The translations under genes were made by a program, and so were the position numbers. The notes beneath the pieces were generated by a model that saw only the letters and a list, made by a program, of their open reading frames with translations, did no database searches and was not told the DNA's origin. From a virus (Duplodnaviria; Caudoviricetes), in the IMG/VR virus record IMGVR_UViG_3300031949_000024, positions 5,678-69,677 of that record: DNA of 64,000 bases. One strand, written 5' to 3'. Positions 6,225 to 41,754 of this stretch are shown piece by piece. Position 1 is the first letter of the stretch. The number at the start of each line of letters is the position of its first letter.

Positions 6225-7670
6225 GTGTTGGATGCCACCTCCGCCGCCTTGTGGGGGCAGGCTGCCAGCACGTTCTCTCGGTCGGCGACGGCCAGGCAGT
6301 TTTTGAGCCCCGGCGACCTGGCCGCGGAGATGGATCCGCGGTCGGTGCGTACGCCGGCGTTGGATCTGATCGATGAGGCGTTGGTGGAGTGCGCCGACGG
6401 GCTGTGTGACCGGCTGATCATCAGCATGCCACCACAAGAGGGCAAGTCGACCAAATGCACGCGAAGGTTCCCGCTCTGGCTATTGCGGCGCAAACCTGAC
6501 ACGCGTGTGGTGGTTGCCTCCTACGAGCACGGGGTGGCCCGGCGTTGGGGCCGGGCGGTGCGCAACGACATCGCCGAACGGCCAGATCTGGGCCTTGCTG
6601 TCCGTCAGGACACGTCCGCGGCGCATGAGTGGCAGTTGGATGGGCACGAGGGCGGCATGTTCTGTGTCGGCATCGGCGGGGCGCTCACCGGACGTCCGGT
6701 CGATGTACTTCTGATAGATGATCCGGTAAAAGGTCCGAAAGAGGCCGAATCGCTCACGTTCCGGGATACGGCGTGGGACTGGTGGGAGTCGGTCGGCTCG
6801 ACCCGACTCGCCCCTGGTGCGTTCGTCGTGTTGGTCATGACTCGCTGGCACGAGGACGACCTAGCCGGTCGGCTGCTACGCGAGGAGCCGAACACGTGGC
6901 GGCTACTCAATATCCCGGCGCAGGCCGACCACCGGCCCGAGCTCGGCGAGGTCGATCCGTTGGGTCGCGAGCCGGGACAGTTCATGGAGTCGGCACGTCG
7001 GCGCACGGTGGAGCAGTGGCAGCGGATCCGCACCCAACGCGGCACCCGCACCTGGAACGCCCTGTATCAGGGTCGCCCGTCACCGGGTGAGGGTCTGGTG
7101 TTCCGCCGGGACTGGTGGCAACGCTACGAACGGCCGCAGTGGATCGAAACCGACGGCGTCTGTTCGGTGCTGTCCTTCGACGAGGTCATCCAGTCGTGGG
7201 ACATGGCGTTCAAAGACACCGACGGGGCCGACTTCGTGGTCGGGCAGGTGTGGGGCCGTCGCAGCAACGACGCCTACCTGTTGGATCAGGTCCGGGGCCG
7301 GATGTCGTTTGTGGACACCTGCATGGCGGTGCGAACGTTGTCGGCCCGCTGGCCGCAGGCGCACGCGAAGCTGGTGGAGGACAAGGCGAACGGCACGGCG
7401 GTCATCAACCAGTTGCGCACGATGGTGCCTGGCCTGATCCCGGTCGAGCCTGAGGGCAGCAAGGTGGCGCGGGCGTCGGCGGTGTCGCCGTTCGTGGAGG
7501 CCGGCAATGTGTGGCTGCCCTCGCCCGAGGTGGCGCCGTGGGTGCAGGCGCTGATCGAGGAGGCGTCGAATTTTCCGCTGTCGACGCATGACGACCAGGT
7601 GGATGCGTTGTCGCAGGCGTTGAACCGGCTGCTGCTCAACGCAGTCCGCCCCCGCGTGAGGTTCATGTGA
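6225..7670 (+). CDS. terL: Terminase large subunit
   Basis: Walker A MPPQEGKS, Walker B LLIDDPVK, coupling motif VMTRW, RNase H-like SWDMAFK...HDDQVDA. Confidence 0.95.
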   Translation: MLDATSAALWGQAASTFSRSATARQFLSPGDLAAEMDPRSVRTPALDLIDEALVECADGLCDRLIISMPPQEGKSTKCTRRFPLWLLRRKPDTRVVVASYEHGVARRWGRAVRNDIAERPDLGLAVRQDTSAAHEWQLDGHEGGMFCVGIGGALTGRPVDVLLIDDPVKGPKEAESLTFRDTAWDWWESVGSTRLAPGAFVVLVMTRWHEDDLAGRLLREEPNTWRLLNIPAQADHRPELGEVDPLGREPGQFMESARRRTVEQWQRIRTQRGTRTWNALYQGRPSPGEGLVFRRDWWQRYERPQWIETDGVCSVLSFDEVIQSWDMAFKDTDGADFVVGQVWGRRSNDAYLLDQVRGRMSFVDTCMAVRTLSARWPQAHAKLVEDKANGTAVINQLRTMVPGLIPVEPEGSKVARASAVSPFVEAGNVWLPSPEVAPWVQALIEEASNFPLSTHDDQVDALSQALNRLLLNAVRPRVRFM

Positions 7671-7680
7671 GGAGTCCATT

Positions 7681-7917
7681 GTGGCCAGTGCGGGACAGAT
7701 CGACATGAAGTTTCAGCTGACGGCGACGGTGCTCGCCCCGGGCGACACGCTCGTGGTGGCCGTGTCGCGGCGGCTGACCGATTGGGAACGGGATCAGATG
7801 GCGGCCGACTTCCGCACAAACCTGCCCGGCGTGAAGGTGGCGCTGATCGAACAATGCTCCGGTCTGGCCACCTATCATCCCGACCCGGACGTGCCAGACC
7901 TGCCGACGCTCACGTAG
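7681..7917 (+). CDS. Hypothetical protein
   Basis: GAGGAG SD; 78 aa ORF. Confidence 0.55.
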   Translation: MASAGQIDMKFQLTATVLAPGDTLVVAVSRRLTDWERDQMAADFRTNLPGVKVALIEQCSGLATYHPDPDVPDLPTLT

Positions 7918-7928
7918 GGGGGGCTGCG

Positions 7929-8462
7929 GTGGCCGCTCGGGTCCTGTTTGCGGGAGCGTACCGGCCGGCGGATGTGGTTGAGGCGCTGCTTCACCCGCAC
8001 AACCACCCGGGTCACGCGAGCCAGAAAAGTCACGGCCGCAAGGGCAATACGGTCCCGTCCGAAGGCCCCGTTGACACGCCAATCATGCGGCCCGGAGTTG
8101 GGCACTATGAGCCGGGGCAAACCTACTTGCGGGTTCAGTCAGCAAACCGGGACTTGACTGATCTGCTAGATCCCGAGCACGTCTCCTATTCGTGGGATAG
8201 CGAGGACGTTTTCGACAGGGGTACTTCGACGGCAGAAACGCCCGAGGAGTTAGCCGAATATCTGGCGCAGACCGGGATACCTATTGGTCTGGGTGATTGG
8301 GTGATCGTTGAGGTAGCGGGTAACGATCTAGGGCCAGGACGGGACCGACACCTCAATGAGCGCCTTGTGGACGTGGATCAGATCGTGTCGGTGCGTCCCC
8401 TCGACGATGAGTTTTTCGGCATGATTGGCGACGCTTACGAACGGCTTAACGAGGGGGCCTGA
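7929..8462 (+). CDS. Tagged effector 1: NHPGHASQKSHGRKG tag plus a possible ART-like (R-S-E) domain
   Basis: GTG 7929 follows a G-run SD. Tag at 8001-8045. YLRVQ...GTST...NERLV spacing resembles an R-S-E ADP-ribosyltransferase fold (weak). Confidence 0.55.
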   Translation: MAARVLFAGAYRPADVVEALLHPHNHPGHASQKSHGRKGNTVPSEGPVDTPIMRPGVGHYEPGQTYLRVQSANRDLTDLLDPEHVSYSWDSEDVFDRGTSTAETPEELAEYLAQTGIPIGLGDWVIVEVAGNDLGPGRDRHLNERLVDVDQIVSVRPLDDEFFGMIGDAYERLNEGA

Positions 8463-8638
8463 TGCGTTCCCTTGTTGCTTTGGCCCGTCAACGTCTGGCC
8501 CGGCCCGGTTCCAGGCATGCCCTGTTGCAGGTGGCCGGGTTCGGCTGCCTCGCGGTGGCGGCCGGCATGTGGCTGCTGCCCGTCGGCATCGCCGTCGCCG
8601 GGGTGTCGCTGCTCGTCATGTCCGGACTGCTGGAATAG
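8462..8638 (+). CDS. Small membrane protein of the kind usually found just upstream of actinophage portals (not in the ORF track)
   Basis: MRSLVALARQRLARPGSRHALLQVAGFGCLAVAAGMWLLPVGIAVAGVSLLVMSGLLE*; two hydrophobic segments. Confidence 0.7.
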   Translation: MRSLVALARQRLARPGSRHALLQVAGFGCLAVAAGMWLLPVGIAVAGVSLLVMSGLLE

Positions 8639-8642
8639 CGCC

Positions 8643-9503
8643 GTGCACTGGTCGGGCCGGTTCGCCGACGAGGTGACAGCCTCGCGTAGCCAACTCACCC
8701 GCGCGCGGGCGCTGCTCGAGCAGGTCCCGCGTAACCACCCCGGCCACCCGGACCAGAAGTCCCACGGACGCAAGGGCGGCACGAAAGCCGACGCGCAGAC
8801 CGCCGACCTGCCGCGGGTCGAAAACCCGGAAGACCGGCGGGCACAGGCCATGGGCACCAACCCCGGCTATCTCGGACCGTACACCGGCCCAGTCACCCCG
8901 AAGATCAAACGGGACGGCGGCGCCAGCTACGCCGAGAACTGCAGCCGGGTCGTCATCGCATATGAGATGCGCCGACGCGGCATCGACGTGACCGCCGGTG
9001 CAGGCTCTCCTGTCGGCGACACGATCGCCGCCTACGTGCACACGTTCCGGCAGGATGGAAAGTATCCGCTCCGGCTGGCGGAGGATCTGTCCCGCGACAT
9101 GTCGGTGCGGCAGGTCGCCACCGAGGTGGAGTCCTGGCCGCACGGGGCGCGGGGCATTGTCACCATTCAGGGCCACACCCTCAGCGTCGAACGGGACACA
9201 AAAACGGGCAAGGCCGTTTTCGTCGATGCGCAGACGGCGAAGAAGAAAAGTCCAATTTTGACCCGGGCACAGTTGGAGGCCCGGATGAAGTCGCGCGGCG
9301 CCCCGACCGACAAGTGGACGGCTGTGGCCCGCGTGGACGATCTTGACCTGTCTGACCATGGCCTGCGCTATGTCGAATCGCCGAGGCTGAGCCTCGCCGA
9401 CGGGCAGGTCGGGAAGACGTCGTTCCCGCAGGACCCGGACAGTCCGACGTTCTCGAGCTTTGAGCAGATAGCGGCCCTGCCCCCGGACGACAGTTACCCG
9501 TAG
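8643..9503 (+). CDS. Tagged effector 2: papain-fold toxin (Tox-PL-like) with NHPGHPDQKSHGRKG tag
   Basis: Catalytic-type motifs ENCSRV (Cys), GHTLSV (His), FVDAQT (Asp/Gln). Start reassigned to GTG 8643 because 8462-8638 is a separate gene. Confidence 0.75.
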   Translation: MHWSGRFADEVTASRSQLTRARALLEQVPRNHPGHPDQKSHGRKGGTKADAQTADLPRVENPEDRRAQAMGTNPGYLGPYTGPVTPKIKRDGGASYAENCSRVVIAYEMRRRGIDVTAGAGSPVGDTIAAYVHTFRQDGKYPLRLAEDLSRDMSVRQVATEVESWPHGARGIVTIQGHTLSVERDTKTGKAVFVDAQTAKKKSPILTRAQLEARMKSRGAPTDKWTAVARVDDLDLSDHGLRYVESPRLSLADGQVGKTSFPQDPDSPTFSSFEQIAALPPDDSYP

Positions 9504-9512
9504 GGGGCTGGG

Positions 9513-10445
9513 ATGGACTTCGACGCTGCCCGCGACGTGGTACGCCGCCGCCTCAACGACCTGTATGCCGGCGAGCGCGAACATCCGGCCGTGTTGCCGT
9601 ACGGGTTTGACACCGGCGGCTCGTGGGCGCCGATGGTCGACTGGCGTGGTGTGACCGGCGTGTACGTCTATCTGGTCGACAAACAGTCGGGTGGGTTGAC
9701 GCCGGTCAGCTTCCCGGAGTTTGTTGACCTGCCCGACCCGTCCCGGGCCGGGGAATGGCCCAACGCCGGGCCGGCGGCGGCTGTTGGAGTAGCCGTGCGC
9801 TGCTGGCAGGGCCGGATGGCCGACGACGTGGCCGGCACGAGAGCCATGGTGGGGCGGGCGCAGGTGCTGCTGGCGCAGACGTATCACCGTGATGCCGATG
9901 GCCAGTTCGCCTCGGGCAACGGCGGCGGGGCCGCCGACGGTTCGGACGGTGAAGGGGAAGGCGGCTCGCTCGATGAGGGCGAGGGTGAATACGGATACGG
10001 CACGGCACCCGATGGTTCTTCCTATTCGGAGTTTGACGTTGACGAGGCCGGCAATCCCCGATTCTCCAGTGAGTACCGGGCGAAGTACGGCCCGATCAAC
10101 AGCGATAGTGCCATCGGGGCCGGGCTGACATTCGTGGCCCCCGAGAAGGGCAAGTTGCACATCGCAGATGATGCGCTGGGCGCCAAACAGCGTCAGGTAG
10201 TGCAGGAGTTCACGAACGCCGAGGCCCGCGATCTGGCCGATGGCATCTACTCCGTCTACTCCGGAGAGTCGGCTTCGGTGGCCACGAAGTCGGGCGTGAA
10301 GGTGGCCCCTGCTGGCCCCCACCCAACGCAAGACGGGGTCAATGTCACGTGGAGCAACGGACGCCGGAGCACCTTTGACGGTGAGGCCGGAAACGACGAG
10401 GCCTTCGAGCTTCAGGAGTCGCTGCTGAATGCAAGCGGGACTTAG
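9513..10445 (+). CDS. Imm35/YrhB-like immunity domain fused to tagged effector 3 (TYHRDADGQFASG plus unknown domain)
   Basis: N-terminal ~80 aa (FDAARDVV...GSW...YLVDKQSG) resembles immunity proteins that neighbour papain-fold toxins. Tag at 9879-9917. Confidence 0.6.
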   Translation: MDFDAARDVVRRRLNDLYAGEREHPAVLPYGFDTGGSWAPMVDWRGVTGVYVYLVDKQSGGLTPVSFPEFVDLPDPSRAGEWPNAGPAAAVGVAVRCWQGRMADDVAGTRAMVGRAQVLLAQTYHRDADGQFASGNGGGAADGSDGEGEGGSLDEGEGEYGYGTAPDGSSYSEFDVDEAGNPRFSSEYRAKYGPINSDSAIGAGLTFVAPEKGKLHIADDALGAKQRQVVQEFTNAEARDLADGIYSVYSGESASVATKSGVKVAPAGPHPTQDGVNVTWSNGRRSTFDGEAGNDEAFELQESLLNASGT

Positions 10446-10453
10446 GGGGGCTG

Positions 10454-11854
10454 ATGCGTTCCCTGCTCGCCCCCCTGTTCAACAAGGCCCCTGCCTATGT
10501 CGGCGCCCAGGCCGGTACTGGCCTGTTCTCCCGGCTGATGGGCCGCAACGACGCCGCCGCCCAGATGGCCGCCATGGGCAGTGTCGGCACCCTGTTCAAC
10601 ATCGTGTCCACCACCTCGCAGGCTGTGGCCGAGGTGCAGTGGAAGCTTTGGCGTAAAGCCAAGTCGGGCAAGACGGAGGACCGCACCGAGGTCACCTCCC
10701 ACGCCGCCTTGGACATTTGGAACAAACCCAACAAGTTCATGACCGGCCAAGAACTGCGGGAGTCGGTGCAGCAGCATATCGACCTGACCGGTGAGGGTTG
10801 GTGCTACGTCGGCCGCAACGACCGGGCCCGTAGCCTTCCGCTGGAACTGTGGCCGATCCGCCCTGACCGGATCGCCCCGGTCCCGTCGGTGACCGACTTT
10901 ATCCAGGGCTACATCTACACCACGCCCGACGGGCAGGCGGTGCCGTGGGAGACCGACTCGGTCCTGATGCTGCGCATGCCCAACCCTTTGGACCCGTACC
11001 GCGGTATGGGGCCGGTGCAGTCGATCCTCACCGAGCTCGACTCGTCGAAGTACAGCGCCGAGTGGAACCGCAACTTCTTCCTCAACAGCGCGGAGCCGGG
11101 CGGCATCATCGAAGTCCCGAACCGGTTGGACGACGGCGCCTGGCGGGAGATGGTCACCCGTTGGCGCGAACAGCACCAAGGGGTGGCCAACGCGCACCGG
11201 GTGGCGGTCATCGAGCAGGGCAAGTGGGTCAACCGGACCTTCAGCATGCGGGACATGCAGTTTGTGCAGTTGCGGACGGTGGCGAAGGAAACCATCCGGG
11301 AGGCGTTCGGGTTCCCCAAGTTCGCCGCCGGCGAGGTTGAAGACGTCAACAGGGCATCAGCGGACGCGTCGGCGGTGTGGTTCGCGAAGCGGCTGACCGT
11401 GCCACGGCTGCAACGGTGGAAGGGCATGGCCAACAACGATTTTCTGCCCCTGTTCGGCGGGGATCCCAATCTCGAGTTCGACTTCGAGTCTCCCGTCAGC
11501 GAGGACGAGGAGGCCGAGAACGCCGAACGCGGCAGCAAGGCGACCGCGGCGAAGACGTACATTGACGCCGGGTTCACCGCCGAGTCGGTGGTGGAAGCCC
11601 TGGACCTGCCCGACGCGTTGGTGTGGGAGAAGCCCGAACCGCCCGCCCCGCCGCCCCCCCCGCCGGGTGCTCCGGCCGGTCCGGCTGTGCCTGGCGAAGA
11701 CCAGCCGCCCGACGTTCCGGCCAAGGTTCCGGCCGCCGACGATGCGGTGGCCAACCTGACCCGTGCGGTGCTGATGTTGGCGGAGGAGCGGGCCGGGCAC
11801 CGCGATGATGACCGGTCGCCTGGTGGCCGCACGTTTCGCGACTACTGGGGCTGA
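10454..11854 (+). CDS. Portal protein (HK97 family)
   Basis: HIDLTGEGW, LWPIRPDRI, YRGMGPVQ, FFLNSAEPGG, N..RVAVIEQG...F..LR, AFGFP motifs. Confidence 0.93.
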   Translation: MRSLLAPLFNKAPAYVGAQAGTGLFSRLMGRNDAAAQMAAMGSVGTLFNIVSTTSQAVAEVQWKLWRKAKSGKTEDRTEVTSHAALDIWNKPNKFMTGQELRESVQQHIDLTGEGWCYVGRNDRARSLPLELWPIRPDRIAPVPSVTDFIQGYIYTTPDGQAVPWETDSVLMLRMPNPLDPYRGMGPVQSILTELDSSKYSAEWNRNFFLNSAEPGGIIEVPNRLDDGAWREMVTRWREQHQGVANAHRVAVIEQGKWVNRTFSMRDMQFVQLRTVAKETIREAFGFPKFAAGEVEDVNRASADASAVWFAKRLTVPRLQRWKGMANNDFLPLFGGDPNLEFDFESPVSEDEEAENAERGSKATAAKTYIDAGFTAESVVEALDLPDALVWEKPEPPAPPPPPPGAPAGPAVPGEDQPPDVPAKVPAADDAVANLTRAVLMLAEERAGHRDDDRSPGGRTFRDYWG

Positions 11855-12542
11855 CAACCGCAGCTACAAGCGTGACAAGGACGGCAAGTTTTCGTCAGGC
11901 GGCAGTTTCGAAAGCCGGGTCGCCGGCGCCGCCGCCGGAGAAGGGGCTCTGCGTGCGGCTCCGTTGAATCGGGATACCGAGGATCATCTGACCGGCGACT
12001 TCCCCGGGTTTGATGACTTTGAAGGTACGGGAGTGCCCGGCCATGTCATCGGCAACAACATCGCGCACTACGGCGACAACGGCCACGCCAGCGTGAACGG
12101 CGTGCTTCGGAGCGGTGGCGATCCAATGCACCCTCCTGAGTCGCTACCTGGTGTGCTTCACTACTCCGCAAAGTCTGTCACGGATCAGGTGACCAGCCTT
12201 GACGCAGCTATGTCACGGTCGCAGCTAACCGCAGACGTCGTTGTCCACCGTGGCGTTGGTGACCCCGCCAAAGTCTTCGGCGCCACATCCGACCTGACGG
12301 GCCTTCGGTTCCGCGATCACGGGTATGCATCAACGACGACCTCCGGCGCGGCCAGCGGTGAATTCACTGGGAACCGAACGGGCGTCCAGATGAGGATCCT
12401 TGTGCCGAAGGGTACTGGGGCAATCAGCTCTTTTGGCCTTGACCGAACTGAGTTATTGCTTGACCGCGATCTGAGTTTCGTTGTACACCGCGACTATGAC
12501 GTGGGCGGGATTCGTACCTTGGATGTCGAGGTCGTTCCGTGA
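11805..12542 (+). CDS. Tagged effector 4: VIP2-like ADP-ribosyltransferase
   Basis: VVHRG (Arg), GYASTT (STS motif), MRILVPKGT, RTELLLDR (catalytic Glu). Tag NRSYKRDKDGKFSSG at 11856-11900. Confidence 0.85.
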   Translation: MMTGRLVAARFATTGADNRSYKRDKDGKFSSGGSFESRVAGAAAGEGALRAAPLNRDTEDHLTGDFPGFDDFEGTGVPGHVIGNNIAHYGDNGHASVNGVLRSGGDPMHPPESLPGVLHYSAKSVTDQVTSLDAAMSRSQLTADVVVHRGVGDPAKVFGATSDLTGLRFRDHGYASTTTSGAASGEFTGNRTGVQMRILVPKGTGAISSFGLDRTELLLDRDLSFVVHRDYDVGGIRTLDVEVVP

Positions 12543-13423
12543 CTTTCGCTGATCGGCTTATCGACGCGGGAGACTTTCCCGTTGAGATACTTGCCAAGTC
12601 CGTTGACGACGGCGGCGATGTCCACCACCTGGAGAACCGCACCCACGGCCTGCCGACGAACCTCGCCCCCACCGACATCGACCTGTCGAAGGTGCAACGG
12701 GACTGGGAACGCCAGTTGGACCAGCTGCTCAAGCAGTGGTTCACCGTCACCGAACACCAACGCGACCAGATTTTGGACAAGGTCCGGGCCGCCATCAACA
12801 ACAACGACCTGGCCGCCCTGGCCGCGCTCAACGTGTCGTCGGCCGAGCAGGCCAACATCCTCACCGCCGCTATGACGCAGATGGCACTGAATGCTGCGCA
12901 GCACGTCGTGGACGAGGCCGCGCGGCAGGGTGTGCGCACCGACCCGGTGGCCACCGACACGCACCGGTTTGCCACTACGGCGGTTGCGTTGGCCGCATTG
13001 TTGACGGCGGCGCTGACGAATTCGGCTGGCCGGGAGGCGCTGCGTCGTTGGTCGCCGAGCACCAGCGGCGACGACGTGACCCGTGCGGTGGAGGGGCATC
13101 TCGCGTCGCTGTCGACGTCGTTTGTGGAAGCGCATCTTGGTGGGGCGTTGACGGCGGCGCAGAACACGGGCCGGTTGGAGACGATGCTCGCGGCGCCGAC
13201 GGCAGCAATATATTCGTCAGAAATGATGGATAAACGGACATGTAACCCATGCCGGGTCGTTAACGGCAAGTGGATCGGCAACTCAGATGACCCGGACATC
13301 GTCGCGAAGATCGAAGCCGTCTACCCGAACGGCGGCTACGTGAACTGCGAGGGCGGGGTGCGCTGCCGTGGCACAACCGTCTATGTCTGGCGCCCCGAGC
13401 AGGTCCCTGCAGCAGGCGCCTAG
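12539..13423 (+). CDS. MuF-like head morphogenesis protein with a short N-terminal extension (possible ART immunity peptide)
   Basis: AAQNTGR, SSEMMDKRTCNPC, GGVRCRGT are MuF-type C-terminal motifs; position between portal and protease. Confidence 0.8.
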   Translation: MTFADRLIDAGDFPVEILAKSVDDGGDVHHLENRTHGLPTNLAPTDIDLSKVQRDWERQLDQLLKQWFTVTEHQRDQILDKVRAAINNNDLAALAALNVSSAEQANILTAAMTQMALNAAQHVVDEAARQGVRTDPVATDTHRFATTAVALAALLTAALTNSAGREALRRWSPSTSGDDVTRAVEGHLASLSTSFVEAHLGGALTAAQNTGRLETMLAAPTAAIYSSEMMDKRTCNPCRVVNGKWIGNSDDPDIVAKIEAVYPNGGYVNCEGGVRCRGTTVYVWRPEQVPAAGA

Positions 13424-14984
13424 CTTCTTCGGCCTGGTCGCCACCGCCCGGGCACGGCTGGACATCCTGGACCGTCAGTACAAGCGCGACAAGGACGGGC
13501 GTTTCGGGTCCGGCGGCGGCATGCACCCGGCCATCGCCGCCTGCTCGACCACCAGCGAAGTCGAAGCTGTCCTGTCGACCGAGCTGTACGACGTCACCGG
13601 CCGGCACGTCACCGTCCACCTGACCGGCCTCGGCGTCGAGGTGGCACGGGTACACGCCGAAGGCGTCCTGCGGGCCATGAAACAGTTCCCCGACACCGAC
13701 CTGCAAACCATCAGCACGTTCGGCCCGGGCGGCCAACACAGCAGCGATGTCGTCGCCGGCACAGACCACAGCGGTTCCTACGCCGTCACCACGCACCGGC
13801 CCGGCACCCGTGGTTCCGACATCTACTTCAACACCCGCTACGGCGACATCGACACGTTGACCGACATGGTGCGTCAGAACGACGCCGTCGGTTGGCTGTC
13901 CGGACAGTCGGGCGACCTGTCCCGGATGGCCTCGCATGAAGTCGGGCACGCCTGGGGCAACACACTCAAGCCCGGCGCCGCCCGACAGGCCGTCGGAGAA
14001 CTGGCCATTGACCGGGGCCTCGTCGATGCGGTCGTGGTGCGAGAAGTGTCCGGCTACGCCAGGAAAGACCTCGGGGAACTGATCGCCGAGTCGTTCAGTG
14101 ACGTCGTGTCCCGCGGCGACGGCGCGTCGCAGCTCAGCAAGGATGTTGTCGACACCGTCGGCAGCCAGTTCGAGGCCGGCCTGCAGTACCCGAACAACCA
14201 GTCCCGCTTCTTCCACCTGTTGGCGGCGGCCCGGAACCGCACCTACAAGCGGGACGCCGACGGACGGTTCGGGTCCGGTGACGGCGGGCCGCGCGGCATC
14301 CGTGACACGTTCGCGCAGGCCAAGACGATCACTTCGCTGGAGTTGGCCGCCGAGGGCGAGCTCGGCTCGATCCTGGGCCAGCGCGTCGCGGTGAAGCTCG
14401 CAGGTCTGGAGATGGACGCGGCCCGGGCGCACGTGGAAGGCATCGCCCGGTCGGCCGAGCTGTACCCGGGCACCGATCTGATCAGCGTCACTTCGTACGG
14501 GCCGCGCGGCCAGGTGTCGGACATTCCCGGGCAGCAGCCCGGCGTGCACGACAAGGTCTGGGGTGTCACCTCCTCGGTGGCTGGCCGGCCCGGGGCGGAC
14601 ATCTACCTGAACACGCGCATCGACGCGCCGAAGATGCGGCGGGTCACCACCAAGGCGGTCGCCGAGGGTGTGGTGGACGGCGACATGTCCGACATCACGT
14701 GGACCGGGTCGCACGAGATGGGCCACGCTGCGGCGTCGATGATGCGCCGCGGCGACCCGCAGCAAGGTGCGGTCAGGATCGCCACCGAGACGGCTGGCGG
14801 TAGCGTCGAGCACGTCTACAACGAGCTGCGCACGACGGTTTCGCGGTATGCGCTTACTCCCGGCGGCGATGAACTGATCGGGGAGGCTACCGCCCAGGTG
14901 GCATCATTGGGTTCGGCGGCGTCGCCGATATCGAAGGCTGTCGTCAAGGGCATGCAGGACAACTGGGACGAGTGGAGCATCTGA
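13368..14984 (+). CDS. Tagged effector 5: tandem duplicated zincin-like metallopeptidase (start uncertain, 13368 or 13383)
   Basis: Two repeats, each with a YKRDxDGRFGSG tag, HExGH (SHEVGH, SHEMGH) and a downstream ELI[AG]E. Confidence 0.75.
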   Translation: MAQPSMSGAPSRSLQQAPSFFGLVATARARLDILDRQYKRDKDGRFGSGGGMHPAIAACSTTSEVEAVLSTELYDVTGRHVTVHLTGLGVEVARVHAEGVLRAMKQFPDTDLQTISTFGPGGQHSSDVVAGTDHSGSYAVTTHRPGTRGSDIYFNTRYGDIDTLTDMVRQNDAVGWLSGQSGDLSRMASHEVGHAWGNTLKPGAARQAVGELAIDRGLVDAVVVREVSGYARKDLGELIAESFSDVVSRGDGASQLSKDVVDTVGSQFEAGLQYPNNQSRFFHLLAAARNRTYKRDADGRFGSGDGGPRGIRDTFAQAKTITSLELAAEGELGSILGQRVAVKLAGLEMDAARAHVEGIARSAELYPGTDLISVTSYGPRGQVSDIPGQQPGVHDKVWGVTSSVAGRPGADIYLNTRIDAPKMRRVTTKAVAEGVVDGDMSDITWTGSHEMGHAAASMMRRGDPQQGAVRIATETAGGSVEHVYNELRTTVSRYALTPGGDELIGEATAQVASLGSAASPISKAVVKGMQDNWDEWSI

Positions 14985-15256
14985 TGGTCAGCCGCCCGAT
15001 ACCGCAGTGCCTGACCTGCGCCCACTGGCAGTCGCCGTTGGGCCGCACCGACGAGGATGCCCGTGGTGAGAAGCCGATCCAGGTGTGCAAGGCGTTCCCG
15101 TTGCCGGCCGGTATCCCCGACGACATTTGGTGGAACCGCGTCGATCACCGCACCCCGCATGCCGGCGATCAGGGCATCGTGTGGGAGGCCGACGACGACG
15201 TGCGCAACGGCGGCAAGATGAAGTTTCCCGACTGGGCCATGAACACCGCCACCTGA
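14984..15256 (+). CDS. Putative immunity protein (CxxCxH...CxAFPxGIP...DH..P..GDxG)
   Basis: QCLTCAHW, CKAFPLPAGIPDDIW, DHRTPHAGDQGIVWE; a pattern I recall following phage head-associated toxins. Confidence 0.6.
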   Translation: MVSRPIPQCLTCAHWQSPLGRTDEDARGEKPIQVCKAFPLPAGIPDDIWWNRVDHRTPHAGDQGIVWEADDDVRNGGKMKFPDWAMNTAT

Positions 15257-15587
15257 CCTAGCCCACCCGATTCACCTGCAGCCCGGATGACCTCCGGGCT
15301 GTTTGGCATGCCCGAACGGAGGCGCGCCCATGCAGTTCTGGGCGCCGACCTTCGCCCTTCCGGGCTTGGCGTGCTTGGAGCCATCAGGCAAGTACCCCAA
15401 GGACCGACCGGTTCCATGTCGACCACGATCACGCCTGCTGCCCTGGATCCCGAAGCTGTGGAAGGTGCACGCGGGGCCTGCTCTGCCACGCCTGTAACAC
15501 CGCGCTCGGCAACTTCAAGGACAGCCCCGAGATCCTACGGGCCGCGCTTCGCTACCTGTCGAGCAATGGAGTGTGGGGTGACAACGA

Positions 15588-17041
15588 TGAGTAGGGATCC
15601 AGCCCAGGCCCATACCTGGTACCGCATTGAGAACAAGGCGGACACCCGGTCAGCGGCTATCTACTTGTACGACGAGGTTGGTTCCTGGGGAATCGCCGCA
15701 AGCCAATTCGTCAAAGAACTCCAAGACCTTCGTGCATCCAAAGTTGACGTCCACGTCAACTCTCCTGGGGGCGAGTGCTATGAGGGCCTCGCTATTTTTA
15801 ATGCGCTCCGGAATCACAAGGCAGAGATCACCGTCTACATCGACGGCCTCGCCGCTAGCGCAGCGTCCTTCATCGCGATGGCCGGCGACCGGATCGTGGC
15901 CGAACGCAATGCGACGTTGATGATCCACAACGCACACGCCGTCGGGGTGGGCGACGCCGGCGACATGCGCAAACTGGCCGACATGCTCGACCGGATGACC
16001 GACACCATCGCCAGCATCTACAGCGACCGGGCCGGCGGCACCGTCGCCCAGTGGCGGGCCCGCATGGCCACCGAAACGTGGTTTTCGGCGGATGAGGCGC
16101 AGGCGGCCGGGCTGGTCGACGAGGTGGCCTCAACCCCGGCACCGAAGAGCATGCCCCGCAACACATGGGATCTGTCGATCTTCAACTTCGCCGGCCGGGA
16201 CGCCGCCCCCGACCCGTTCGCCCCACTCGCCGAAGCAATGCCTATGCCGCCGCGCAAGAAGACGCCCGACATGCCCGCGGATATGCCGATGCTCGCCGTC
16301 GGCGACCGCGTGCAGGTGGCCGGAACACCACACGAGCCCGGACAGGCCACCGGCACCGTAGCCGAGGTCGAGCACGGGCCCGCCTACGGCATCCGCTTCG
16401 ACGGCGGCGGAGACCCGGGCGGCGACGTGCACCGCTGGTATGTCGCCGCTGAACTGGCCCCAGCGGGCGCGGCGGCCACAAACCGCGCCGAGGCAATCCC
16501 GGTGGCCGAGGCAGTCCCGGTGGTGGTCGCGGAGGATGTCCCGCTCGTCCTCGCCGCGTTCGACCCGGCCCAGTTCCGCGACGCCGTCAACGCCGCCTCA
16601 GTGCTGCCGTTCGACCCGGCCGACTTCCGCGACGCTATGGCCAGCCTGGCCCACGACGCACCCGCCCCGCCGGCCAACACACACCGGACCGTCGACCTCG
16701 GGCCGCAACCCGAGGCGGAACCCGCGGCGGCTCCGGCCAACCCGTGGAATGTCGTTCACGACCACGTCCACGGCCTAGCCCACGAAGCCCCGGCCCCACC
16801 AACAATCCAGCCCACACCCGTCGACCTCGGGCCGCTACCGCAACCGGCCGAACCGGTACCTGAACCGCCGCCGCTGAACCCCTGGGACCAGCTGCGGGCC
16901 GCAGTCCGCATAGCCGCCAACAACGCACCCGCACCACCACAACCCAACAGCACCACCACCACCGAAAGCCCGGCCGAGGAGCCGGGCTTTTCTATGGACG
17001 CGCCAGCGTTCCGGACTGCTCTGAGGAGGGCAAAGCTGTGA
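15588..17041 (+). CDS. ClpP-type (S14) prohead protease with a long Pro/Ala-rich scaffold-like C-terminus
   Basis: IYLYDEVG, VHVNSPGG, DGLAASAASFIAMAG (Ser), LMIHNA (His), ETWFSADEA. Start ATG 15588 (MSRDPAQAHTWYRIEN). Confidence 0.92.
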
Positions 17042-18510
17042 GCAATAGGATCCGACTCTCCGCCGGGCAGCGCGACGCGCTGACACGACGGGGCCTCAAC
17101 CCGGACGACCTGGGCCGCATCCTCAACCGCCAGGCCGCACCGCCGGTGCCGGCCGACAACGAGCTGAAGATGACCGTCCCCACCTCGGCCGCCGAGCTCG
17201 AGGCGATGCTCGGCGACGGCAAGAAGATGCAGGCCATCTTCGGCACCCCGCACTTCGGCGAGTTCATCACCAACTACGCCCGCGTCGTGCACGAGAAGGA
17301 CCTGTCCATCGCCAACCAGGTGCAGGAGCAGGTCCAGCGGGTGCTGGCCGACTGGCTGCGCGAAAACCAGCCCGAGGGCATCGACCGTCTCGACCTGACT
17401 CCCCGTCAGGTGGTTGCCACCGGCGACGCCCGCAACCACGTCCACAACCCGCGGGCCATGGGTGCGGTCCTCGACAAGGACTTCACCGGCCCCACCGCCA
17501 GCGCCGACTACTTCGCCACCATCTGGCACATGCAGAACCGGACCGCCGACGTTCAGGCCAAGCTGCAGCGGGTCCGCAACGCATTCTCGTCCACCGTGCC
17601 GTCCGAGGGCGGGTTCCTGATCCCGGAGACGCTGCGCTCGGAACTGCTGCGGGTGTCGCTGGAGACGTCGATCGTGCGCCCCCGCGCGCGGGTCATCCCG
17701 ATGGAGACGCTGCGGGTGCCGTTCCCGGCCATCGACTCGACCAGCAACGTGTCGTCGGTGTATGGCGGCATCGTCGGCTACTGGACGGAGGAAGGCGCGG
17801 CGCTGACCGCGTCACAGGCCGCGTTCGGCCGCATCGTGTTGGATGCGAAGAAGCTGACCGCCTACACCGAGGTCCCCAACGAGCTCATCTCCGACTCGAT
17901 CGTCTCGTTCCAGGCGTTCCTGGACCAGATTTTCCCCGAGGCGTTGGGCTTCTACGAGGACGACGGTTTCATCAACGGGTCCGGTGTGGGTGAGCCGCTC
18001 GGCTGGCTCAACGCCGCCGCGGCCGTGGAGGTCACGAAGGAGTCGGGGCAGCTCGCCGACACCATCGTGTGGGAGAACATCGTCAAGGCCTACGCCCGGA
18101 TGCTGCCGTCCTCACTCGGCCGGGCAGTGTGGGTGTGCTCGATCGACACGTTCCCGCAGCTGGCCACGATGGCCCTGTCGGTGGGTACCGGCGGGTCGGC
18201 GATCTGGCTCAACAACGGTGCGGTCGGTCCGCCCATGACGATCCTCGGCCGGCCGGTGATCTTCACCGAGAAAACCCCGGTTGTCGGCGACGCGGGCGAT
18301 ATCAACTTCGTCGACCTCGGCTTCTATCTGATCGGCGACCGGCAGGTCATGAGCGCGATGTCCAGCCCGCACTTCAAATTCCAGAATGACCAGACGGCCT
18401 ATAGAATCATCGAGCGCGTTGATGGTAGGCCGTGGTTGCAAAGCGCAATCACGCCCAAGAATGGCGGCAGCACGCTCAGTCCTTTCGTGAAAATCGCGGC
18501 CAGGGCGTAA
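17038..18510 (+). CDS. Major capsid protein (HK97 fold) with N-terminal delta domain
   Basis: SEGGFLIPE, WTEEG, KKLTAY..V.NEL..DS, FINGSGVGEPLG, ILGRPV, FQNDQTAYRIIERVDG. Confidence 0.95.
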   Translation: MSNRIRLSAGQRDALTRRGLNPDDLGRILNRQAAPPVPADNELKMTVPTSAAELEAMLGDGKKMQAIFGTPHFGEFITNYARVVHEKDLSIANQVQEQVQRVLADWLRENQPEGIDRLDLTPRQVVATGDARNHVHNPRAMGAVLDKDFTGPTASADYFATIWHMQNRTADVQAKLQRVRNAFSSTVPSEGGFLIPETLRSELLRVSLETSIVRPRARVIPMETLRVPFPAIDSTSNVSSVYGGIVGYWTEEGAALTASQAAFGRIVLDAKKLTAYTEVPNELISDSIVSFQAFLDQIFPEALGFYEDDGFINGSGVGEPLGWLNAAAAVEVTKESGQLADTIVWENIVKAYARMLPSSLGRAVWVCSIDTFPQLATMALSVGTGGSAIWLNNGAVGPPMTILGRPVIFTEKTPVVGDAGDINFVDLGFYLIGDRQVMSAMSSPHFKFQNDQTAYRIIERVDGRPWLQSAITPKNGGSTLSPFVKIAARA

Positions 18511-40890: not shown

Positions 40891-41754
40891 TTACGCCGCT
40901 TCGGCGGCGGGTCTGGGCCGGATAGACGCCGGCCCAGGCTCCACCACTCGGGTGGGCTCATTCAGGTGGGGCAGCCGCCCGACCGCGGCGGTCAGGTCTT
41001 CGTCGTCGAACTCCAGGTAGATCTGGGTGGTGGCGACCGACGAGTGGCCGAGCAGGCGGGCAATCGTCGCCGTGTCGACGCCCATCCGCCGGAGTCGGGT
41101 CGCGAACGCCCCACGAAACCAGTGGATCGTCAACCTCGGCTCACCCATGCGGTCGAATGCCGTCGCGCAGGTTCGGGTCACCCAGCTTGCGGTCACGCTC
41201 TCGCCGTTGTGCGTGACGAGCGGCCCGTCCGTGCAGTCTCCGATCTCCTCCCATACGTCGTCGAGGAGCGGCACGGCCCGGCCTACCTCACCCTTGCCGA
41301 GGATCAGGACCCGCTCCTCGTTGAAGTCCTGGCGGTCGGCGCGGGCGATCTCACCGGCCCTCATGCCCGCGCCTGCGGCGAGGATGACGCATCGGCGCAC
41401 CGGGTGGCCGAGTTCGGCCAGGCAGCGGCGCAACTGGTCGTCGCTCGCTACGCGCGGGAGACGTTTTTTTGGGCGTGGGCGCCTCAGTTCGGCGCTGGGG
41501 TCCCAGTCCATCCAGCCGTCTCGCACGACCTGACGGTAGAAGCCGATCATGTGGCACCAGTAGGTTTCGCGGCTCTTGGTGTTGATGCCCTCTCGGCCGA
41601 GCCAGGTTCGGAGTTCTCGTGTCGACGCCTCGTCGACGCCCTTGGGTAGTTCGCGGTCGAGGGCCAGGAGCAGTCGTTCCCGATCCCGCACCGTTGCGGC
41701 TGACGCCCCTTCAGCCCGGAGGGCTGCGAGGTGGTCGTAGATGAGTTCTGACAT
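40891..41754 (-). CDS. int: Tyrosine integrase/recombinase lacking an arm-binding domain
   Basis: Catalytic set GMRAGE (R), GKG (K), HWFR (HxxR), LGH, TQIY; C-terminus AAEAA. Confidence 0.92.
   Translation of the reverse strand: MSELIYDHLAALRAEGASAATVRDRERLLLALDRELPKGVDEASTRELRTWLGREGINTKSRETYWCHMIGFYRQVVRDGWMDWDPSAELRRPRPKKRLPRVASDDQLRRCLAELGHPVRRCVILAAGAGMRAGEIARADRQDFNEERVLILGKGEVGRAVPLLDDVWEEIGDCTDGPLVTHNGESVTASWVTRTCATAFDRMGEPRLTIHWFRGAFATRLRRMGVDTATIARLLGHSSVATTQIYLEFDDEDLTAAVGRLPHLNEPTRVVEPGPASIRPRPAAEAA

Follow-up and report, generated by a model that had tools for sequence, protein, structure and literature searches.

Short peptide headers on exchangeable effector modules in the head-gene region of a temperate phage: a possible split form of polyvalent-protein and MuF-toxin cargo

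Introduction

Two classes of phage proteins, the polyvalent proteins and the MuF toxins, have been proposed to be injected together with DNA and to be processed by zincins (PMC5512222; PMC5576092). Polyvalent proteins, which unite at least two disparate activities in one polypeptide, carry one to five zincin copies interspersed with ADP-ribosyltransferases (ARTs) and further effectors, are associated with MuF, are encoded in the neighborhood of head genes and are predicted to enter the host with the DNA (Iyer et al. 2017, J Bacteriol, PMC5512222). In MuF toxins, found in the head modules of temperate phages, an N-terminal MuF domain is fused to a variable C-terminal toxin, with an immunity gene downstream (Jamet et al. 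2017, BMC Biol, PMC5576092), as in gp5-gp6 of Arthrobacter phage KBurrousTX and gp4-gp5 of BarretLemon. Here, a 64-kb stretch ("the window") of the 69.7-kb IMG/VR record IMGVR_UViG_3300031949_000024 is analyzed, in which six effector modules on five open reading frames (ORFs) lie between the terminase and a ClpP-type head protease, each directly behind one of two short peptide tags. The locus is proposed to be a split form of phage polyvalent-protein and MuF-toxin cargo, with tags that would act as headers for both loading and cutting, a reading to which a probability of about one half is given.

Short signals that lead to the head are familiar from phage T4, where the capsid targeting sequence is removed by the gp21 head protease. 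The internal proteins that bear it are diverse and have only this sequence in common, and it also encapsidates foreign proteins, GFP among them; together with Alt, they enter the scaffolding core through a short N-terminal signal and are injected with the DNA, and several of them are basic (PMC3012670). A tag-headed basic protein family described below resembles them, whereas the T4 sequence has no similarity to the tags, which also occur internally and in tandem and belong to siphovirus-like, HK97-type phages of actinomycetes. No common header motif is known for the Dar proteins of phage P1 (DarA, DarB, DdrA, DdrB, Hdf and Ulx), which also lack homology to the proteins studied here. As cited in the polyvalent-protein paper (PMC5512222), these are antirestriction proteins packaged in the head, and the likeness lies in several effectors being loaded there in dependent order, some of them processed, and injected to protect incoming DNA.

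Two tags and the modules behind them

The tagged ORFs are referred to as B, C, D, F and H (Table 1). Tag 1, Y[KH]RDxxG[RKQ]FxSGG, is present in four copies that head the domains of D, F and both halves of H, and tag 2, NHPGHxxQKSHGRKG, in two copies that head the domains of B and C. All six are on the plus strand and in one shared reading frame, where a first-pass annotation made from the sequence alone had placed them, and a six-frame regular-expression scan of the 69.7-kb record found no further copy. Codon-block shuffles gave chance expectations of 0.025 for tag 1 and 0.115 for tag 2, compared with the 4 and 2 copies observed. For each pair of copies, different codons encode 4-8 of the 8-13 residues that are identical (a third to three quarters), and because identical residues so often differ in codon, it is the peptide that is conserved. 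The tags are preceded by slot-specific, helical-looking leaders of about 20-35 amino acids (aa): one kind comes after a 78-aa ORF, those of C and D are related to each other, and a further one each is found behind the portal gene and behind MuF. In an otherwise confident AlphaFold (AF2) model of a module from ORF H, the tag (residues 1-15) has predicted local confidence (pLDDT) values below 50, and the tag is predicted to be intrinsically disordered.

The five tagged ORFs share one reading frame, and portal and MuF share another, an arrangement with a chance of about 1 in 81; frame relations differ in relatives, hence no mechanism is read into it. Programmed frameshifting or read-through was considered for portal-F, MuF-H and B-C-D and was rejected, because MuF and the next gene stand in three different frame relations in the window and two relatives (L001, L002) and because a genuine ORF in another frame lies between B and C.

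Cassette exchange at the tags

Searches at protein and DNA level brought up 11 more loci from this lineage, in which TerL, portal, MuF, a Cys-rich ORF, ClpP-type protease and capsid protein are 44-99% identical. All of the more than 30 tags in these loci lie between terminase and head protease, and they head M34-like peptidase, ART, papain-fold or unassigned modules, either in single proteins or in polyproteins (P0004, P0005, P0007, P0008, P0009). Polyprotein layouts include M34-M34-papain (P0004), M34-ART (P0005) and four M34-like modules in a row. MuF can also take part: a 771-aa protein of L007 is arranged as (tag-M34)x2-MuF, and P0043 is a MuF-tag-domain fusion. In one tagged M34-like gene of L007 (4005-4814), the HExGH motif is out of frame with the tag; L013, apparently the same phage, has an intact copy, and an assembly frameshift in one contig is likely. 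For cultured relatives, searches of 50,697 phage records (megablast, tblastn) with H, F, a basic tagged protein and MuF returned matches to MuF only, and distant ones.

The closest relative, L006, is 92-98% identical to the window in DNA. Homology stops at 7990, just before the tag of B, and at 9924 and 11903, just past the tags of D and F, and beyond these three breakpoints the modules differ. The leader of slot B is identical in both phages and is followed here by tag 2 and an ART-like fold and in L006 by tag 1 and an M34-like peptidase. Because homology breaks exactly at three tags, the tags are joints of exchangeable cassettes, in line with the modular system of the first-pass annotation, and because one leader carries either tag, the two are functionally interchangeable.

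Identity of the effector modules

The two halves of ORF H are 34% identical and form, together with eight relatives, a family with invariant HExGH, YA and ExxxE motifs, in which H157, E158, H161, Y202, E210 and E214 are invariant in 10 modules. No Pfam model matches these modules, but the profile of the family can be aligned with anthrax lethal factor (LF) along the HEFGH...Y..TNE.EFFAEAF segment of its catalytic core (E 0.025). An AF2 model of one module (pLDDT 83.8, pTM 0.85) matches LF 555-776 with a Z score of 10.2 over 186 residues and the Pro-Pro endopeptidases PPEP-1/3 with a Z score of 7.8, and the top Foldseek matches are of the same family. Since profile, model and structural matches agree, the modules are assigned to the M34-like zincins, and ORF H is read as two modules of LF/PPEP (M34) fold with a predicted peptidase activity, a downstream Glu being the expected third zinc ligand. 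They have in common with the LF catalytic domain, PPEP-1 and PPEP-3 the HExGH motif and a downstream Y-x(5-7)-E-x(3)-E helix, but identity is 13-17%, the other domains of LF are missing and the context is a phage head. The two HExxH peptidases of the first-pass annotation are thereby given a family, whereas its ART-like assignment for ORF B is kept as a lead only.

That lead comes from a domain model with pLDDT 72.6, whose top structural matches are nearly all folds of the ART superfamily: MbcT and RES toxins, ParT, DarT, TreX, Arr, cholera-type A1 and PARPs. The matches are weak (Z at most 5.5, Foldseek E at least 0.19), an Atlas lead points to Arr-ms at 0.93, no Pfam match was found for the domain, and its homologs are stand-alone proteins of 113-126 aa; a small ART-superfamily fold is thus suggested tentatively. 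The assignment of ORF F is firmer, with a match to PF03496 (9.2e-10; 38.6 bits, above the gathering cut-off of 23.4) and to phrog_3895. The Arg, STT and final Glu positions are present in ORF F, and neither E nor Q stands two positions ahead of the catalytic Glu. ORF C matches the papain-fold toxin family PF15644 at E 6e-4 and 21.3 bits, under the gathering cut-off of 24.1, and its homolog P0004 has a precomputed match to the same family. In tblastn searches, the toxin matches the C-termini of the MuF fusions of BarretLemon (4e-11) and KBurrousTX (7e-6), and also the C-termini of polyproteins P0004 and P0007. A start at 8472 had been given for this ORF in the first-pass annotation; a frame-specific plot of G+C at third codon positions (GC3) moves it to a GTG at 8643 and shows the stretch before it to be a separate membrane ORF. 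For the C-terminal domain of ORF D, no match was found in Pfam, PHROGs or Atlas.

An immunity-like domain next to the papain-fold toxin

The N-terminal ~90 aa of ORF D directly follow the papain-fold toxin in all five loci that have it, and in every case a leader, a tag and an effector (M34-like, ART or unassigned) continue the same protein. The MuF-toxin fusion gene of KBurrousTX is followed by one annotated Imm35, and hhalign links the D N-terminal domain weakly (E 0.0025, probability 12%) to the Arthrobacter phage genes so annotated; neither gives a match in Pfam. Nothing comparable to this domain follows B, D, F or H. Where the first-pass annotation saw several immunity-like domains, synteny thus supports immunity for the papain-fold toxin only, and two small ORFs, of 58 and 94 aa, are core genes of the lineage (see below). 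Inside ORF D, a GGAG-N5-GTG sequence is present at 9786-9797, where the relatives P0019 and P0022 begin. A start there could give a separate leader-tag-effector product without the immunity-like domain.

Tags beyond the lineage

A 30-column profile of tag 1 was compared with 1.84 billion representative proteins at E<=1e-3 and returned 260 clusters. Most of the matches are proteins of 60-600 residues that are very basic (21-29% K+R) and start M-A-R-T-Y-K-R-D-x-x-G-R-F-A-S-G-G; neither Pfam nor PHROGs has a family for them, and a second motif, NRLTRDNAGRITSVGG.GATARGGRL, is shared by many. Each phage has 2-5 paralogs of this family (P0033, P0045-P0049 and others), often directly after MuF, and its members are candidates for DNA-associated internal head proteins. 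Other contexts are also seen. One match consists of the tag and then a ParB-like domain, and four true polyvalent proteins place a looser form of the motif (...RDxxGRFxSGG) before their domains: LPD1 and three HExxH go with six copies, a DRAT-like ART with three and a Zeta toxin with two, and a 3,038-residue protein with an InPase and nine ART-PolyVal domains has one. As many as six tags are carried by P0154 and up to four by P0008. Among cellular genomes tag 1 is rare, with a match in 3 of 301 genomes of the host's order.

The genomic setting was followed in 72 IMG/VR loci that carry basic tagged proteins (L021-L092), available as partial stretches, in which 133 of the 135 distinct tagged ORFs are of the basic kind. 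A MuF gene is present in 45 of the 72 stretches; the nearest tag is within 3 kb of it in 39 of these 45 and directly downstream of it on the same strand in 18. Two loci, L014 and L018, have a different portal family (DUF4055), yet a PF04233 MuF adjoins three tagged paralogs in them. Tag 2 was found behind helical leaders in seven further viral contigs (54-68% G+C; viral-contig scan), four of them with MuF and one also with tag-1 variants. In L104, tag 2 stands at ~1062-1103, right after the WDLSVFNYAGR that ends the ClpP domain, at the junction with the scaffold-like tail. As had been predicted, the tags occur only in head-module genes, both in the window and across some 90 viral loci, related or unrelated. 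The further expectation that they would co-occur with ClpP-type head modules failed, since a ClpP-type head protease is present in none of the 72 loci (0/72), which rules out that the tags are tied to such modules; MuF is the recurrent neighbor instead. Dependence of the tags on an M34-like peptidase was likewise rejected, because a tag-basic-M34 protein occurs in 15 of the 72 stretches and the other 57, partial as they are, show no M34-like module. The motifs thus head or link the modules of head-associated proteins in hundreds of further phages and are probably markers of proteins that enter the capsid, are cleaved apart in it, or both.

The phage and its head-gene backbone

The record has 67% G+C and a CheckV completeness of 100%, and the phage is taken to be temperate because a tyrosine integrase gene is present. 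Since the same head module, with a 78% identical capsid protein, is carried by a 7.3-kb contig of a Micromonosporaceae metagenome-assembled genome, the host is probably an actinomycete. Pfam and PHROG matches for TerL, portal, MuF and the ClpP-type protease (Table 1) agree with the anatomy of backbone, tags and modules first described from the sequence. MuF is 54-90% identical across all lineage loci and 29-32% identical to the MuF of Arthrobacter phages, and the capsid protein is 73-99% identical to its orthologs in L001, L005 and L007. An Endonuclease_7 (PF02945) gene directly follows the capsid gene in L001 (7230-7805) and is not in the ORF list of the window at the equivalent place.

Three small ORFs accompany the tagged genes. 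The 78-aa ORF in front of the first cargo slot has no family match and is 99% identical in L006 and 51% identical in L007/L013. The 58-aa ORF, whose ATG overlaps the TGA of ORF B, encodes two hydrophobic helices and is kept in L006 (90%) and L007 (55%) whatever the upstream cassette; a role as immunity protein for B was ruled out, since it is retained when the upstream module differs. The 94-aa Cys-rich ORF is found in the window and under eight other locus identifiers, some of which denote the same contigs, with 51-97% identity, and it abuts or overlaps the end of an M34-like gene in the window as well as in each of the five loci with annotation (L001, L002, L005-L007). In L007, both are in front of the portal gene. 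It may encode a partner of the M34-like peptidase (an inhibitor, a chaperone or a zinc-related protein). The 58-aa and the Cys-rich ORFs are both core genes of the lineage.

Table 1. Coordinates of the tags, tagged ORFs and other genes (window positions unless a related locus is named)
Feature	Position	Strand	Details
TerL, large terminase	6225-7670	+	PF03237/PF17289; phrog_38 1.8e-106
78-aa ORF preceding first cargo slot	7681-7917	+	highest GC3 in own frame
ORF B	7929-8462	+	leader 7929-7998, tag 2, then ~113-aa domain
Tag 2	8001-8045; 8733-8777	+	one reading frame shared with tag 1 copies
58-aa two-helix membrane ORF	8462-8638	+	different frame; GC3 0.95 there
ORF C	8643-9503	+	GTG start; leader, tag 2, papain-fold toxin
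ORF D	9513-10445	+	immunity-like domain 9513-~9790, leader from 9795, tag 1, domain 9927-10442
Tag 1	9882-9926; 11865-11909; 13479-13523; 14244-14288	+	shared reading frame
Portal	10454-11854	+	PF04860 2.8e-54
ORF F	11805-12542	+	leader, tag 1, ADP-ribosyltransferase
MuF-like minor head protein, 294 aa	12539-13423	+	phrog_595 2.6e-9; PF04233 weak
ORF H	13368-14984 (called start 13383)	+	two units of tag 1 and M34-like peptidase
HExGH motifs of ORF H	13935 (first half); 14712 (second half)	+	
94-aa Cys-rich ORF (CxxC...C...H)	14972-15256	+	directly downstream of M34-like gene
Cys-rich ORF in relatives	L001 3990-4280; L002 3616-3885; L005 14342-14611; L007 4822-5097		
ClpP-type head protease, scaffold-like C-terminal region	15287-17041	+	PF00574 2.7e-30; phrog_2976 1.3e-88
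HK97-type major capsid protein	17038-18510	+	orthologs in L001, L005 and L007 carry PF05065
Tyrosine integrase	~41002-41394	-	PF00589, 62.5 bits

Comparison with polyvalent proteins and MuF toxins

The surroundings of the tagged ORFs are those of polyvalent proteins: a locus between terminase and protease with two zincin modules, one clear ART and one tentative ART-fold domain. Moreover, the relatives P0004, P0005 and P0008 are such polyproteins, and proteins with LPD1 and ART-PolyVal domains repeat the looser form of tag 1. In the window, however, the modules are mostly separate genes set among terminase, portal and MuF. No polypeptide here unites two disparate effector activities: a single effector is found in each of B, C and F, H contains the same kind of domain twice and D has an immunity-like and an unassigned domain, whereas P0004 and P0005 do combine disparate activities. 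Header motifs, their two forms and slot-specific leaders are not mentioned in the paper that described polyvalent proteins (PMC5512222), and full-text searches of the literature on polyvalent, MuF and capsid-targeting proteins brought up no description of the motif.

With MuF toxins, the locus has in common the head module of a temperate phage, MuF and a variable toxin and, tentatively, an immunity-like domain downstream. The toxin of ORF C is homologous to the C-terminal one of the Arthrobacter MuF fusions. The difference is that MuF is fused here to none of the effectors, which are carried by five separate tagged proteins and thus stand alone, as the first-pass annotation had it; MuF fusions do exist in P0043 and L007. 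The Arthrobacter MuF fusions have a Pro-rich linker and no tag.

A load-and-cut reading and its alternatives

From the anatomy of the locus, the domain folds, the disorder of the tags, the exchange at them, their distribution and their nearness to MuF, we infer a course of packaging, recognition, cleavage and action. The effectors are encoded as five late genes interleaved with those of terminase, portal, MuF and head protease, and the header would be recognized during procapsid assembly, so that the module is taken into the head, for which the T4 capsid targeting sequence is the precedent. The likely receptor would be MuF, the portal or the scaffold, with MuF favored as the only constant neighbor of the tags. 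The same header would be a cut site at which the head protease or the M34-like modules split polyproteins and fusions into their units. The modules would then exit with the DNA and act on the next host by ADP-ribosylation, LF-like proteolysis and papain-fold deamidase or protease activity, with the immunity-like domain neutralizing the papain-fold toxin in the producer, and the tags would double as evolutionary joints for cassette exchange. Delivery from the head is the natural reading because the Arthrobacter phages KBurrousTX and BarretLemon carry this papain-fold toxin as part of their MuF protein, with an Imm35-annotated gene behind it.

A dual function is favored because pure loading and pure cleavage each leave some tag positions unexplained. 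Were the tags processing sites only, cut by the head protease or the M34-like modules while entry into the capsid depended on the leaders or on MuF, one would expect them where they are found at every internal polyprotein junction, between immunity-like domain and effector, between MuF and cargo and, in L104, directly behind the ClpP domain of the protease-scaffold protein. The M34-like module is also the commonest one and is always headed by a tag, and Iyer et al. propose zincin autoprocessing in polyvalent proteins (PMC5512222). This is nevertheless considered unlikely, since most tag-1 proteins begin almost at once with the tag (residues 3-17) and have no upstream part that could be released, the conserved core of ~14 residues far exceeds what known head proteases need in a site, 57 of the 72 stretches show no M34-like module and none a protease of ClpP type, and the 2-5 diverged M34-like paralogs per phage resemble effectors rather than one processing enzyme. 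The first-pass annotation had proposed loading by way of the tags; with loading alone, the tag would be a docking peptide that binds a head component and stays uncut, and polyproteins and immunity fusions would enter the head whole. For such a loading signal encapsulin cargo peptides are a precedent. The T4 capsid targeting sequence is another (PMC3012670), a disordered tag would suit a linear docking motif, and the tag is N-terminal on the stand-alone effectors and on hundreds of basic proteins near MuF. But one tag per polypeptide would then suffice, and polyproteins have one per module (four in P0008, six in P0154); MuF-tag-cargo fusions would need no docking tag, and packaging an immunity domain with the next effector would have no obvious use, so that loading alone seems improbable too.

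It is more doubtful still that the products do not reach the virion at all. The ORFs would in that case be toxin and immunity cassettes of a late operon, released at lysis or acting in the producer or lysogen in bacterial competition, and the tags would be pre-toxin joints serving mainly recombination, like VENN in CdiA. A temperate phage, breakpoints at the tags and a pair of toxin and immunity-like domain would fit, and, as we read Jamet et al. (PMC5576092), the way in which MuF toxins are delivered is not yet settled. The tag peptide is kept, however, despite divergent codons and across lineages without DNA similarity to one another, it also heads non-toxic, very basic proteins, and the recurrent tight placement by MuF and portal and the covalent MuF fusions point to the head. 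The load-and-cut reading has difficulties of its own. Its two roles are in tension, as a tag at residue 3 releases nothing upstream and a MuF-tag-cargo fusion needs no loading signal. The type of head protease varies among the tag-bearing phages, so that different proteases would need to read the same site. There is also no clear sequence similarity between tag 1 and tag 2, and no tag-like sequence is found in the protease, scaffold, portal or capsid protein of this phage.

More tentatively, and at somewhat worse than even odds, the load-and-cut reading may be extended to MuF-bearing tailed phages in general. Tag 1 (with the looser RDxxGRFxSGG) and tag 2 would be general, hitherto undescribed capsid-cargo headers, portable peptides that load any module into the procapsid through a conserved head component, probably MuF, and set a cut site; effectors would be swapped as tag-delimited cassettes, and the basic family would consist of DNA-associated internal proteins like those of T4.

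Significance

The tagged modular arsenal seen in the first-pass annotation is real as an arrangement, and it is a variant of the polyvalent-protein and MuF-toxin theme rather than something wholly new: the theme was already known, and what is new is the split organization around short disordered headers. To that theme, the window adds the finding that near-identical phages diverge exactly at tags, a leader that accepts either tag, the M34 fold of the peptidase modules, recurrent immunity-tag-effector fusions and a MuF-adjacent basic family. If the tags are true signals for loading, cutting or both, they would provide a sequence rule for finding phage proteins co-injected with DNA, a class that includes many anti-defense and host-takeover enzymes and is hard to recognize. 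They would also explain how the arsenal is reshuffled between near-identical phages and would supply a short, portable peptide with which foreign proteins could be packaged into HK97-type capsids. A family of LF/PPEP-fold peptidases and a large family of basic head proteins that may be bound to DNA join the list of candidate cargo, and the locus shows that the polyvalent-protein strategy can do without one giant polypeptide.

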